A stretch of DNA of 32,000 nt from Chloroflexi bacterium GWB2_49_20 (GCA_001796335.1 MGMF01000001.1:358657-390656), one strand, 5' to 3'. Positions 11,906-14,482 are shown, numbered from the stretch's first letter. The notes: generated by a model from the letters alone, not told the origin. Program-made: numbers and translations.

Positions 11906-11933
11906 TTGACATATAGACAATTATCGATATAAT
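11906..11933 (+). promoter_or_regulatory. sigma-70-type promoter of arsR (TTGACA-16-TATAAT)
   Basis: ttgaca at 11906-11911, a 16-nt spacer, tataat at 11928-11933, about 22 nt before the ATG at 11955. Confidence 0.6.
11910..11931. promoter_or_regulatory. operator-like imperfect palindrome, site 1 (CATATAGACAATTATCGATATA)
   Basis: It fills the -35/-10 spacer of the arsR promoter. The halves ATATAGACAA and TTATCGATAT are inverted with 8 of 10 positions matching. It matches site 2 at 18 of 22 positions. An extra half-site CATATAGAC lies at 11936-11944. Confidence 0.5.
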
Positions 11934-11954
11934 ATCATATAGACGAACTTCAAT

Positions 11955-12269
11955 ATGACAAAACCAAACCCTGTACTTTTTGCCAAAGCCCTGGCAGATG
12001 CCACCCGCCAAAAGATCATGAACCTGTGCTGCTGCAAGTGGTTGTCTGTTAACGAAATTGTGGAGCAGATCAATGTCTCGCAACCCACTGTCTCACATCA
12101 TCTTGCCATCCTGCGCGAGGCTGGATTGGTGGAGACACGCCATGAAGGCAAGCAGATTTTCTACACCCTGGATCAGGACAAAGTGGCCACATGTTGCGGA
12201 AACCTGGTGACTAAATTCGCCCCGGATAGTAAAACCGCCGGAATTATCAAGATCAACGAAACCATTTGA
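11955..12269 (+). CDS. arsR: ArsR/SmtB-family metalloregulator
   Basis: 104 aa. Winged HTH (LSVNEIVEQINVSQPTVSHHLAILREAGLV). A Cys triplet (NLCCCKW) sits where ArsR carries its ELCVCDL As(III) site. Confidence 0.9.
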   Translation: MTKPNPVLFAKALADATRQKIMNLCCCKWLSVNEIVEQINVSQPTVSHHLAILREAGLVETRHEGKQIFYTLDQDKVATCCGNLVTKFAPDSKTAGIIKINETI

Positions 12270-12275
12270 CCTGAT

Positions 12276-12310
12276 GGACATGGGTTTTTGACCCTGTCCA
12301 CTCTTTTTTT
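12276..12310 (+). terminator. rho-independent terminator between arsR and arsM
   Basis: ggacatgggt (12276-12285) pairs with accctgtcc (12291-12299): 9 bp with one bulged T. It is followed by aCTCTTTTTTT. Confidence 0.6.
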
Positions 12311-12315
12311 GACTA

Positions 12316-12337
12316 TTCATAGATAACTGTCTATATG
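12316..12337. promoter_or_regulatory. operator-like site 2 (reverse orientation) within a putative arsM-hgcAB promoter
   Basis: The reverse complement of 12316-12337 is CATATAGACAGTTATCTATGAA, matching site 1 at 18 of 22 positions. It sits between TTGACT (12309-12314) and TATATG (12332-12337), 12 nt before the arsM ATG. Confidence 0.5.
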
Positions 12338-12348
12338 AAAGGAAAAGT

Positions 12349-13083
12349 ATGAAATCATCACTTACCCCAGTACATGAAATCGTTCGTGAGCGTTATGCAC
12401 AGGCTGCCCGCTCAACTTCCTCCTGTTGTTCTCCCAGCTCAACACTCTACCCTGCCGAGCTTCTGACAGAATTACCGACAGACATCACTGATTTCAGCCT
12501 GGGGTGCGGAAACCCGATCGCGGCAGCCAACCTCAAACCCGGCGAAACTGTATTGGATCTGGGCTCGGGTGGCGGATTGGATTGCTTCCTGTCTGCCCGC
12601 AGGGTGAGATCAGTCGGCAAGGTCATTGGCGTGGATATGACCCCTGAAATGCTTGAGCGCTCGCGTTTAAATGCAGCCCGGCTCGGGATCACAAATGTGG
12701 AGTTTCGTGAAGGTTATCTGGAAAACCTTCCAGTGGAAGATCACAGTGTGGATGTGGTTATTTCCAATTGTGTTATCAACCTGTCACCAGACAAACCGCA
12801 GGTCTTTCGGGAGATCTTCCGGGTGTTAAAACCAGGTGGACGCATGGCAGTGTCGGATGTTATCACAAATGGATCACTGCCAGAATCCATCCGTAGTAAT
12901 ATGGACGCCTGGGGAGCCTGTGTTGCCGGCGCCCTGGATATGCAAGATTATTCGCAGGGTTTGTTGCAAGCCGGTTTTGAGGATGTTAAAATCCAACCAA
13001 AAAACAGCTCCAATGAACTATTGCAAGTACTGCCGGTTGGACAGCCATTTTCCGCCATCATCAGCGCCCGCAAATCAGCCTAA
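12349..13083 (+). CDS. arsM: arsenite S-adenosylmethionine methyltransferase (short form)
   Basis: 244 aa. SAM motif [12 protein letters not shown]. ArsM-type conserved cysteines in [21 protein letters not shown] and AWGACVAG. Confidence 0.88.
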
Positions 13084-13110
13084 TTGGATAACTCAGGAGA
13101 CAGTCTGACC

Positions 13111-14115
13111 ATGATCAATCTGGATACGATCACAATCAATTCCCGGCCAAATATTTTCAGTACGACACCTCAATTATCCCGTGCAAATCATTGGGACCAT
13201 TTTCTGGCACGGCTGGGCTACAAACGCAGCCAGCACTGTGTGGAACCCGGGCTTTACGCCATCGGGAATCCATCTCCCGATTCGCCGGTGTTTGTGACCG
13301 CAAATTACACTCTCAGCTTCGATGCTCTGCGCTCCAACCTCAACGGGATCGATGGCTATATTTTGGTCCTGGATACCAATGGGGTCAACGTTTGGTGTGC
13401 AGCCGGTAAGAAAACCTTTAGCACGGAAGAAATTGTGCTGCGTGTGACTGCCACCCAGCTAAAAAAAGTTGTGAACCGCCATGTGTTGATTCTGCCACAA
13501 CTGGGTGCTCCGGGAGTGGCAGCGCATGAAGTAAAGAAACGCACCGGCTTCAAAGTGGAATATGGTCCGGTGCGGGCAACCGATCTGCCTGAATATTTGA
13601 AAACCCGCCAGGCTACCTCTGTCATGCGCCAGGTGAACTTTCCCCTGCGAGACCGGATCATTCTGATCCCTGTGGATTTTGTGCACCTCATCCTTCCCAC
13701 AGTTTTGGCAGCCCTTGTCTTTTATTTCTTCCTGGGGGGACTGCTACCTGCCCTGGCTGTCCTGGCAGTGCTGTTTTCAGCGGGGATCCTTTTCCCCATT
13801 CTTCTGCCGTGGCTGCCAACCCACAACTTCAGCACCAAAGGTTTCTTCCTGGGGTTCCTGACAGCACTGCCTTTCGCCCTTTCAGTCTTCATCCGGCACC
13901 CGGATTGGACCTGGTACCATCAGGCCGGGCAGGCATTCGGCTTCCTGTTAGCCATGCCAGCAGTGGTGGCCTTCATCAGCCTCAATTTCACCGGGTCAAC
14001 CACTTTCACATCAAAAACTGGCGTGCGCCGCGAAATGTTTGCTTATCTGCCTGCCATGGCCTGGATTTTTGCTGCCGGCATCATCCTGAACATTGCCTTT
14101 GCTTTTATACGCTAA
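13111..14115 (+). CDS. hgcA: mercury methylation corrinoid protein HgcA
   Basis: The ATG at 13111 follows AGGAGA; the track ORF starts at a TTG (13084). The diagnostic cap-helix motif NVWCAAGK is present, with its Cys codon at 13396-13398. The flanking region matches the HgcA corrinoid-binding domain (VFVTANYTLSFDALR...ILPQLGAPGV.AHEV....GFKV.YGPVRA.DLP.YL). The C-terminal half has about 4-5 TM helices. Confidence 0.93.
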   Translation: MINLDTITINSRPNIFSTTPQLSRANHWDHFLARLGYKRSQHCVEPGLYAIGNPSPDSPVFVTANYTLSFDALRSNLNGIDGYILVLDTNGVNVWCAAGKKTFSTEEIVLRVTATQLKKVVNRHVLILPQLGAPGVAAHEVKKRTGFKVEYGPVRATDLPEYLKTRQATSVMRQVNFPLRDRIILIPVDFVHLILPTVLAALVFYFFLGGLLPALAVLAVLFSAGILFPILLPWLPTHNFSTKGFFLGFLTALPFALSVFIRHPDWTWYHQAGQAFGFLLAMPAVVAFISLNFTGSTTFTSKTGVRREMFAYLPAMAWIFAAGIILNIAFAFIR

Positions 14116-14127
14116 TGGAGCAGCTAT

Positions 14128-14400
14128 ATGTATAACTCTTATTCTGTAAACACTCTGGCCTACAATGCAGAACTATGCAATGGTTGTGGCATGTGCGTGG
14201 CTGTTTGCCCGCATGCCGTATTTGAAATGAATGAAAGAAAGGCCCACCTGTTCCAGCCGCTGGCCTGCATGGAGTGCGGAGCTTGCCAGTTGAATTGTGT
14301 GACCGGCGCCATAACGGTCGAGAGTGGGGTGGGCTGTGCAGCTGCCATGATGCGGGCTGCCTTGCTTGGTTTGCCGGAAGCTGAATGCAGTTGCGGTTAA
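14128..14400 (+). CDS. hgcB: mercury methylation ferredoxin HgcB (2x[4Fe-4S])
   Basis: Starts 12 nt after hgcA. Two CX2CX2CX3C motifs (CNGCGMCVAVCP and CMECGACQLNCV, the second containing the HgcB-typical CMECGA). Conserved GVGCAAA. C-terminal cysteines occur as ECSCG. Confidence 0.9.
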   Translation: MYNSYSVNTLAYNAELCNGCGMCVAVCPHAVFEMNERKAHLFQPLACMECGACQLNCVTGAITVESGVGCAAAMMRAALLGLPEAECSCG

Positions 14401-14422
14401 GGTAATTGTTTACCAGGAACTC

Positions 14423-14451
14423 TTGACAACAACACTTATCAAGTGTATAAA
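14423..14451 (+). promoter_or_regulatory. near-consensus promoter TTGACA-17-TATAAA with a 15-bp perfect palindrome in the spacer
   Basis: ttgaca at 14423-14428 and tataaa at 14446-14451. The palindrome ACACTTatcAAGTGT occupies 14432-14446, a TetR-operator-like size. The site lies 160 nt upstream of the TetR gene. Confidence 0.45.
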
Positions 14452-14482
14452 AGATACCGACTGGTCGGTATCTTTTATTTTG
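14452..14482 (+). terminator. rho-independent terminator after hgcB
   Basis: agataccga (14452-14460) pairs with tcggtatct (14465-14473) around the loop ctgg, followed by TTTATTTTG. Confidence 0.8.

Follow-up and report, generated by a model that had tools for sequence, protein, structure and literature searches.

A candidate ArsR operator shared by arsR and arsM-hgcAB in an Anaerolineae mercury-methylation locus

Genes and transcription units of the locus

We analyzed a stretch of 32,000 nucleotides from Chloroflexi bacterium GWB2_49_20 (GCA_001796335.1, MGMF01000001.1:358657-390656), which we call the window; positions are counted from its first letter. In the window, the mercury-methylation genes hgcA and hgcB lie downstream of two arsenic genes, arsR and arsM. 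All four genes are co-directional, on the plus strand. arsR (11955-12269) encodes an ArsR/SmtB repressor of 104 amino acids (open reading frame [ORF] listing, NCBIfam, and Pfam); arsM (12349-13083) encodes a short arsenite S-adenosylmethyltransferase of 244 amino acids (NCBIfam and PDB matches); hgcA (13111-14115) encodes a corrinoid methyltransferase of 334 amino acids (NCBIfam and the cap-helix motif); and hgcB (14128-14400) encodes a ferredoxin of 90 amino acids with two [4Fe-4S] clusters (NCBIfam and cysteine motifs). The intergenic spacing is 79 nt between arsR and arsM, 27 nt between arsM and hgcA, and 12 nt between hgcA and hgcB. The four proteins have the same sequences as OGN76474-OGN76477, which NCBI labels as a hypothetical protein, an arsenite S-adenosylmethyltransferase (OGN76475), a carbon monoxide dehydrogenase, and a 4Fe-4S ferredoxin. 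All four exceed the NCBIfam cut-offs for ArsR, ArsM, HgcA, and HgcB. The host replicon is probably an Anaerolineae (Chloroflexi) chromosome, and the locus is probably a two-promoter ArsR regulon module, with predicted binding by ArsR.

We compared the window with 160 loci (1.11 Mb). Eighty of these are from genome species representatives, which were found by scanning genomes with an HgcA alignment and whose HgcA is 42-69% identical to that of the window. The other 80 are closer contigs from a metagenome scan (HgcA 63-81% identical). Neighboring genes were counted by tblastn with the window's proteins, at loci whose sequence extends 1.3 kb or more upstream of hgcA.

ArsM scores 306 against the NCBIfam arsenite methyltransferase model NF008823 (cut-off 263). 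It has a class I fold that binds S-adenosylmethionine (SAM) (Methyltransf_31, 4.5e-39; motif VLDLGSGGG), and it matches ArsM structures in the PDB with E values down to 7e-39. Its C26, C53, C141, and C191 align with C44, C72, C174, and C224 of CmArsM. The model score and this alignment agree with an earlier reading of the locus made from the sequence alone (the sequence-only reading), which had identified ArsM from four cysteine positions and the VLDLGSGGG motif. The C-terminal domain found in ArsMs of 340-400 amino acids is missing, and the protein is predicted to methylate As(III). A Shine-Dalgarno sequence, AGGA, lies 8 nt upstream of the start of arsM. Among 32 hgcA-linked ArsMs, C26, C27, C141, and C191 are kept in every one and C53 in 24; the other eight, which form a longer subtype (275-295 amino acids), have a serine at the position of CmArsM Cys72 (12505-12507 in the window). 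Several of these Ser53 proteins bear extra CC pairs within an N-terminal insert. The subtype may have a different arrangement of catalytic cysteines.

HgcA scores 410 against NCBIfam NF040863 (cut-off 275), and it falls under the cut-offs of the paralogous families: 211 versus 285 for HgcAB-like fusion proteins, and 78 versus 306 for the gamma subunit of the corrinoid iron-sulfur protein. Scoring with these NCBIfam models thus places it where the sequence-only reading had placed it, and far from the corrinoid iron-sulfur protein. The cap helix NVWCAAGK, with Cys96, is invariant in an alignment of 23 relatives. Hydrophobic stretches at residues 181-238, 242-263, 271-297, and 308-334 correspond to a C-terminal membrane domain (as judged by hydropathy only). 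The identity, cap helix, and transmembrane domain reported earlier therefore stand, while the length is 334 amino acids, not 335. The gene has a Shine-Dalgarno sequence, AGGAG, at 13095-13099, and most relatives keep a Shine-Dalgarno sequence in this junction. A TTG at 13084 has no support as an alternative start, because homologues align from the ATG. HgcB scores 106.5 against NF040864 (cut-off 99), and both of the CX2CX2CX3C motifs from which it had been identified were located (C17-x2-C20-x2-C23-x3-C27 and C47-x2-C50-x2-C53-x3-C57). It has additional cysteines at C70 and in C87-S-C89; this C-terminal pair is CxC, versus the adjacent C94 and C95 reported in Pseudodesulfovibrio mercurii ND132 (PMC11588087). 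HgcAB of this locus is predicted to methylate Hg(II).

arsR is followed by an intrinsic terminator on the plus strand (12273-12310), which consists of a bulged hairpin (12273-12303) and seven T's (12304-12310). The hairpin folds with -15.5 kcal/mol (z -4.95), which was equalled by none of 200 shuffles. It was recovered by folding, as a one-base bulge hides it from a simple terminator scan. A second, strong intrinsic terminator on the same strand (14447-14485), with a 14-bp stem and a T tail that the terminator scan placed at 14447-14478, follows hgcB; the 91-nt fold over it (14400-14490) has -27.2 kcal/mol (z -4.4). Terminator-like matches within coding sequences are at the level of chance (5 versus 3.7 expected). 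At the arsM/hgcA and hgcA/hgcB junctions, nothing folds, neither junction fits a terminator, and there are only Shine-Dalgarno sequences. The ORFs, the folding, and the terminator scan thus reproduce the order described before (arsR, terminator, arsM, hgcA, hgcB, terminator), and the coordinates reproduce the gaps of 27 and 12 nt. Of 37 such regions in relatives, 33 have a T-run before the regulatory box upstream of arsM (see below), and in 23 of the 37 the T-run follows a hairpin with a strength of at least -8 kcal/mol. The arsR terminator is thus persuasive in the window and in many of its relatives, although not in every one.

The view that arsM, hgcA, and hgcB form one operon has good comparative support: the genes are on the same strand, the gaps are short, there is no internal terminator or promoter, the adjacency is conserved, and there is one upstream regulatory site. 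Alternatively, hgcAB might be transcribed from an internal promoter that is independent of arsM, in which case the adjacency would have no regulatory meaning. There is a candidate for such a promoter at 12964-12992, within the 3' end of arsM, which matches the consensus at 9 of 12 positions and has a TG extension. However, the closest relatives (L082, L084, and L085, all of which have arsM) do not share this site, and we dismissed it as a chance match. Promoter-like matches in the region (7, versus a shuffle mean of 3.9 with a standard deviation of 2.1) are not clearly beyond chance. Also, in 31 of 32 related loci only 1-81 nt (median about 27 nt) separate arsM from hgcA, which is too short for a promoter, and these junctions have a Shine-Dalgarno sequence only; and the regulatory box described below never lies in this junction. 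We consider an independent promoter quite improbable. A single arsM-hgcAB unit is favored because of these short gaps, because the box lies upstream of arsM only, and because the internal promoter-like site is not conserved. The gaps, the operator position, and the lack of a conserved internal promoter all fit the one apparent operon of the sequence-only reading; co-transcription itself we infer from comparison.

Promoters and a palindromic box

The arsR promoter (11906-11933, plus strand) has a -35 element, TTGACA, at 11906-11911, a 16-nt spacer, and a -10 element, TATAAT, at 11928-11933, and it matches the sigma-70 consensus at 12 of 12 positions. In an anchored alignment, the consensus CTTGACAAATAGACgaTTATCTATATAAT is kept 5' of arsR in 52 non-redundant relatives. 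A repeat search of the window showed that a 19-nt part of this promoter reappears, inverted, just 5' of arsM. The repeated stretch resolves to a 6-4-6 palindrome, ATAGAY-N4-RTCTAT, which is a candidate ArsR operator.

Three copies of the palindrome (to which we assign no strand) lie at the locus. Box 1, ATAGACaattATCGAT (11913-11928), has one mismatch and is within the spacer of the arsR promoter. Box 2, ATAGACgaacTTCAAT (11939-11954), is weaker, with two mismatches; it lies between the -10 element and the arsR ATG and is the second copy of direct repeat D1. Box 3, ATAGATaactGTCTAT (12319-12334), is an exact palindrome located 30 nt 5' of arsM. With a -35-like TTGACT (12309-12314), box 3 makes up the regulatory region of arsM-hgcAB (12309-12334, plus strand). 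A palindromic box that overlaps the promoter of the regulator's own gene is a feature of autoregulation, and binding by ArsR is predicted.

The palindrome occurs at two sites in the window with at most one mismatch, versus 0.14 expected. In the 1.11 Mb of related loci, the exact palindrome has 104 matches, versus our chance estimate of about 0.3, and 93 of these 104 sit either at the promoter of an arsR gene or in the interval that separates arsR from the gene after it. Boxes are found at -42 and -16 relative to the arsR ATG in 55 of the 56 loci with enough upstream sequence. At the 29 loci with the arrangement arsR-arsM-hgcAB, the interval from arsR to arsM always holds a box (29/29), and the interval from arsM to hgcA never does (0/29). 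Where arsR is followed directly by hgcAB, a box is immediately 5' of hgcA in 12 of the 21 loci with a scannable arsR-hgcA gap. No such box is present where arsR overlaps hgcA, as it does, for example, in the sister loci L004, L014, L108, and L113; Desulfovibrio is known for this co-transcribed arrangement. An anchored alignment of 37 regions upstream of arsM gave the consensus TTTTTTGAcc..ATAT-ATAGAC.tTcRTCTAT-.TgA, with a hairpin before it and a Shine-Dalgarno sequence and ATG after it.

A few loci have the box in other settings. In L005 (4910-4992) and L033 (4870-4974), an arsR-type promoter drives hgcA directly, with no arsR in between; the promoter consists of TTGACA, a one-mismatch box, and then TATAAT (L005) or TATATA (L033). 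This suggests that arsR was deleted or that regulation is in trans. In L142 (360-1510), a box-bearing arsR-type promoter is followed by a gene for an AlaX-like editing domain (tRNA_SAD), and arsR is the second gene. Finally, in the cultured Firmicute Desulfosporosinus nitroreducens P130 (L080:4888-4944, NZ_JAMJEV010000019.1), two exact boxes flank a TATAAT, 113 and 72 nt 5' of hgcA. An ArsR orthologue was not detected in this 11-kb locus, so the operator may serve outside the Chloroflexi via a regulator that is encoded elsewhere.

Cargo variation among related loci

To survey how often arsM precedes hgcA, we divided the loci by the identity of HgcA to that of the window. At 65% identity or above (an Anaerolineae clade), 28 of 44 loci have arsM directly before hgcA and 42 of 44 have an ArsR orthologue upstream. 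Below 65%, these numbers are 1 of 67 and 4 of 67. The association on which the sequence-only reading was built is thus common within one clade and nearly absent outside it. The single outside case (L024:3727-5975) is in a Candidatus Methanoperedens metagenome-assembled genome (MAG) of the RBG_16 series, where a 90-amino-acid MazE/AbrB-like protein with N-terminal CC..CC motifs precedes arsM (270 amino acids), hgcA, and hgcB. L024 has neither ArsR nor an ATAGAY-N4-RTCTAT box, and its arsM looks like an independent recruitment.

Within the clade, two sister loci show that either cargo can be missing. L083 (2966-4726) has both flanks of the window, including the GT4 gene upstream, and carries arsR-hgcAB without arsM. 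L166 (3595-4800) carries arsR-arsM and then a terminator, without hgcAB, and its downstream flank is the same pair of genes as in the window, for a TetR-family regulator and an HpnA-like NAD-dependent epimerase. (In the window this pair is at 14611-16221, 3' of hgcB, and the epimerase scores under the HpnA cut-off. The pair is syntenic 3' of hgcB in many relatives, at varying distances, and no box precedes it.) By examining the genomic context of ArsM homologues, we found L166 and four other arsR-arsM loci without hgcAB (L161-L164), all with the same ArsR type and box. ArsM is 343-360 amino acids long in L161-L164, and ArsM homologues that are 66-67% identical to that of the window occur in arsR-arsM loci without hgcAB.

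On a tree of HgcA, loci with and without arsM are interleaved, and so are the ArsM subtypes (short with Cys53, or long with Ser53 and extra CC pairs). Together with the sister loci, this indicates that one ArsR-gated slot has acquired, lost, or exchanged arsM and hgcAB independently of each other. The box is also found at arsP. Genes for ArsP_1 (PF03773) permeases just 3' of hgcB carry their own T-run and exact box in L097 (5379), L112 (5328), L129 (5344), and L098 (1937). In L007, a one-mismatch box upstream of 6506 precedes arsP, and arsM follows. In L165 (7695-7795), there are three boxes, with the arsP boxes beside an apparent relic arsR promoter from which arsR has been deleted. As boxes occur at arsR, arsM, hgcA, and arsP genes, hgcAB appears as cargo of an ars-type ArsR regulon in one Anaerolineae clade. 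The gene identities, the architecture, and the conservation and distribution of the operator sequence are established. We think it likely, judging from these comparisons, that arsM and hgcAB are co-regulated cargos of one ArsR-controlled slot and not obligate partners.

A contiguous arsM-hgcAB unit had been proposed to couple As(III) methylation and Hg(II) methylation physically. This finds no support: arsM is optional and patchy, and the sister loci without arsM (L083) or without hgcAB (L166) mean that physical or biochemical coupling is not implied. A functional coupling can still be imagined, in which HgcAB of this clade would natively be a second, corrinoid-based methyltransferase that acts on arsenicals or another metalloid, joining ArsM and ArsP in the making and export of methylated metalloids, and mercury would be methylated only as a side reaction. 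In favor of this, hgcAB shares its regulon with arsM and arsP, the hgcAB regulator of strain ND132 responds to arsenic (bioRxiv 10.1101/2022.10.17.512643), and the production of antimicrobial organometals or organometalloids has been suggested for arsM as well as for hgcAB, with antimicrobial methylmercury discussed as a native role of hgcAB (PMC10083202). However, the two cargos are found separately in the same slot, arsM is upstream of hgcA in just the one locus outside the clade, and the dehalogenation of halomethanes has been proposed as another native function of HgcAB (bioRxiv 10.64898/2026.04.26.720869). We consider functional coupling unlikely.

The tight adjacency of arsM and hgcA, and the shortness of ArsM, without the C-terminal domain of the larger ArsMs, might instead point to an accessory of HgcAB, such as a protein that loads the methyl group onto the corrinoid, and not to an arsenic methyltransferase. 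Yet purified HgcAB uses SAM directly as its methyl donor (Zheng et al. 2024, PMC11588087) and does not need a helper. Furthermore, all four of the cysteines that handle As(III) are kept, close homologues occur at arsR-arsM loci without hgcAB, and most hgcAB loci lack such a gene. We therefore rejected a methyl loader; an accessory role is very improbable. Because SAM is the methyl donor of HgcAB, the contrast that had been drawn between SAM-dependent arsenic methylation and corrinoid-dependent mercury methylation is also outdated.

Elsewhere in the window, GC content is about 0.5 except at 21000-25900, where it is 0.37-0.43. This stretch contains a Type ISP restriction-modification enzyme of 1060 amino acids (22674-25856, minus strand), and ORFs at 20417-21253 and 21355-22347 have no Pfam matches. 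The low-GC stretch is probably a horizontally acquired defense islet. Two other ORFs (244-1053, 269 amino acids; 7340-8170, 276 amino acids) match no Pfam family at an E value of 1e-5 or lower. No tRNA genes were found in the window. No Rfam family, including the riboswitches for SAM, S-adenosylhomocysteine (SAH), and cobalamin, reached its gathering score anywhere in the window, and we therefore rejected a riboswitch or other structured RNA between the genes.

The regulator, its regulon, and known systems

ArsR scores 86.6 against the NCBIfam ArsR/SmtB model NF033788 (cut-off 55) and has a winged-helix HTH_5 domain (PF01022, E 1.3e-14). It has vicinal cysteines at C(25)C26C27 and at C80C81. 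Among 57 orthologues, the pair at 26-27 is kept in 55 and the pair at 80-81 in all 57. Given these pairs and the content of the regulon, the effector is most likely As(III) or methylarsenite, MAs(III). Reactive sulfur species, SAH, or other metals are possible effectors as well.

If one of the latter is correct, then ArsR would not be an arsenic sensor: it would sense reactive sulfur or oxidation (like BigR or SqrR), SAH, or another metal, and "ArsM" would act mainly on a different thiophilic substrate. The solved structures closest to ArsR are BigR (E 9e-13), SrnR, and CzrA, and SqrR is also listed. The second-tier NCBIfam matches are SdpR, BigR, and TsoR, each under its own cut-off. In an alignment relative to these structures, the cysteines of ArsR would be close to alpha-2 and alpha-5, which is also where persulfide sensors have theirs. 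Also, ArsR2 of ND132 responds to SAH (bioRxiv 10.1101/2022.10.17.512643). On the other hand, the regulon holds an arsM with four As(III)-handling cysteines as well as ArsP-family permeases. Furthermore, vicinal Cys-Cys pairs are typical of the As(III) sites of other ArsR types and of ArsD, and persulfide sensors rely on single cysteines. A sensor for something other than arsenic is, in our judgment, a doubtful explanation.

We propose the following mechanism. arsR would be transcribed from its consensus sigma-70 promoter, which carries two palindromes, and transcription would end at its own terminator. The third palindrome would gate a second unit, arsM-hgcA-hgcB, which is closed by the terminator 3' of hgcB. 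A dimer of ArsR on the palindromes would repress both units, and a thiophilic metalloid, likeliest As(III) or methylarsenite, would be bound by the two vicinal cysteine pairs and cause ArsR to be released. After derepression, ArsM and HgcAB would be made together; ArsM would methylate As(III) with SAM, and HgcAB, which is SAM-dependent through its corrinoid, would methylate Hg(II) or another soft metal or metalloid. On the present evidence, a two-promoter ArsR module whose palindromes gate arsR and arsM-hgcAB is the probable arrangement, with predicted binding, effector, co-transcription, and activities.

Several points weigh against this proposal. There is no recognizable sigma-70 -10 element for arsM-hgcAB: spacers of 17-19 nt give TCTATA and TATATG. 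Because of this, the middle box (box 3) might be a roadblock to read-through and not the operator of a promoter; a roadblock might be another route to the same regulatory outcome. In roughly one third of relatives, only a weak hairpin stands before the T-run. Neither BigR, SrnR, nor CzrA, the nearest solved relatives of ArsR, is an arsenic sensor, and in a manual comparison CC26-27 and CC80-81 lie off what we take to be the alpha-3 CVC site of the R773 ArsR, so the effector is uncertain. Finally, we know of no cultured Anaerolineae that methylate Hg.

The co-localization of arsR and arsM with hgcAB is already published (PMC7438021; bioRxiv 10.1101/2022.10.17.512643), and the statement in the sequence-only reading that ArsR-like regulators have been reported beside hgcAB is correct. 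McDaniel et al. (2020) describe arsR, arsM, acr3, and arsC adjoining hgcAB in MAGs (PMC7438021, legend of Fig. 6 and text), and Gionfriddo et al. report that in MAGs from the Rifle site hgcAB is accompanied by arsR and by ars genes, among them arsM (bioRxiv 10.1101/2022.10.17.512643). These reports concern the same phenomenon as ours; they are pictures of gene neighborhoods, and their portions on hgcAB neighborhoods give no clade-level frequency, operon structure, or operator. The published set of ars-flanked hgcAB MAGs very probably includes GWB2_49_20. Its name presumably belongs to the Rifle-site series.

The best-characterized comparison is arsR2-hgcAB of ND132, where ArsR2 controls hgcAB and responds to arsenic (bioRxiv 10.1101/2022.10.17.512643). 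That study also set a deletion mutant against the wild type in order to learn whether hgcAB has a part in arsenic resistance. As in the window, a cysteine-rich ArsR/SmtB regulator lies directly 5' of hgcAB, and for ND132 both the control and the arsenic response are shown (Goni-Urriza 2020, as described in citing papers; bioRxiv 10.1101/2022.10.17.512643). In ND132, however, arsR is co-transcribed with hgcAB and there is no other ars gene nearby. In the window, a separate promoter and terminator serve arsR, a further operator region lies 5' of the second unit, and arsM stands ahead of hgcA. A literature search found no paper, among those that could be searched, that combines hgcAB, ArsR, and an operator. 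Neither "operator" nor "palindrome" appears in the text of the ND132 preprint, and one of its supplements does not list GWB2, Chloroflexi, or arsM (bioRxiv 10.1101/2022.10.17.512643).

Canonical arsR-arsM(-arsP) operons resemble the locus in the type of regulator, the ArsM family, and the operator (L161-L164 and L166, with the box also at arsP). They differ in that the unit in the window adds hgcAB, and no arsC, acr3, arsB, or arsP was found elsewhere in the 32-kb window. In archaea, a putative hgcAB regulator of the PrlF/AbrB type (PMC10349881) is also encoded by a small gene directly 5' of hgcAB, as in L024, but it has another fold, and the box is absent (L024).

Why microbes carry hgcAB, and what switches these genes on, matters environmentally because the production of methylmercury depends on them. 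Anaerolineae are reported to be abundant among the carriers of hgcA in some environments (PMC12953829). In a broader view, which we put forward tentatively and think rather unlikely as a whole, HgcAB of this widespread clade would be a true member of a regulon that responds to arsenic or metalloids (arsR, arsM, and arsP); its native role would be the methylation or detoxification of metalloids, or the making of toxic organometals or organometalloids, with Hg methylation as a by-product; and ATAGAY-N4-RTCTAT would be the first defined cis-element of hgcAB, which may reach beyond the Chloroflexi (strain P130).

The locus alone repeats the published association of ars genes with hgcAB. Beyond that association, the comparison contributes a candidate operator, a frequency at the level of the clade, and a set of naturally occurring variants. 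These provide three handles: a candidate operator that is common to arsR, (arsM-)hgcAB, and arsP; variants in one genomic slot (arsR|arsM, arsR|hgcAB, arsR|arsM-hgcAB, and arsR-hgcAB, where the bar separates units); and a regulator with two vicinal cysteine pairs. The operator, the variant series, and the cysteine pairs make arsenic or metalloid control of the mercury-methylation genes of Anaerolineae directly testable.

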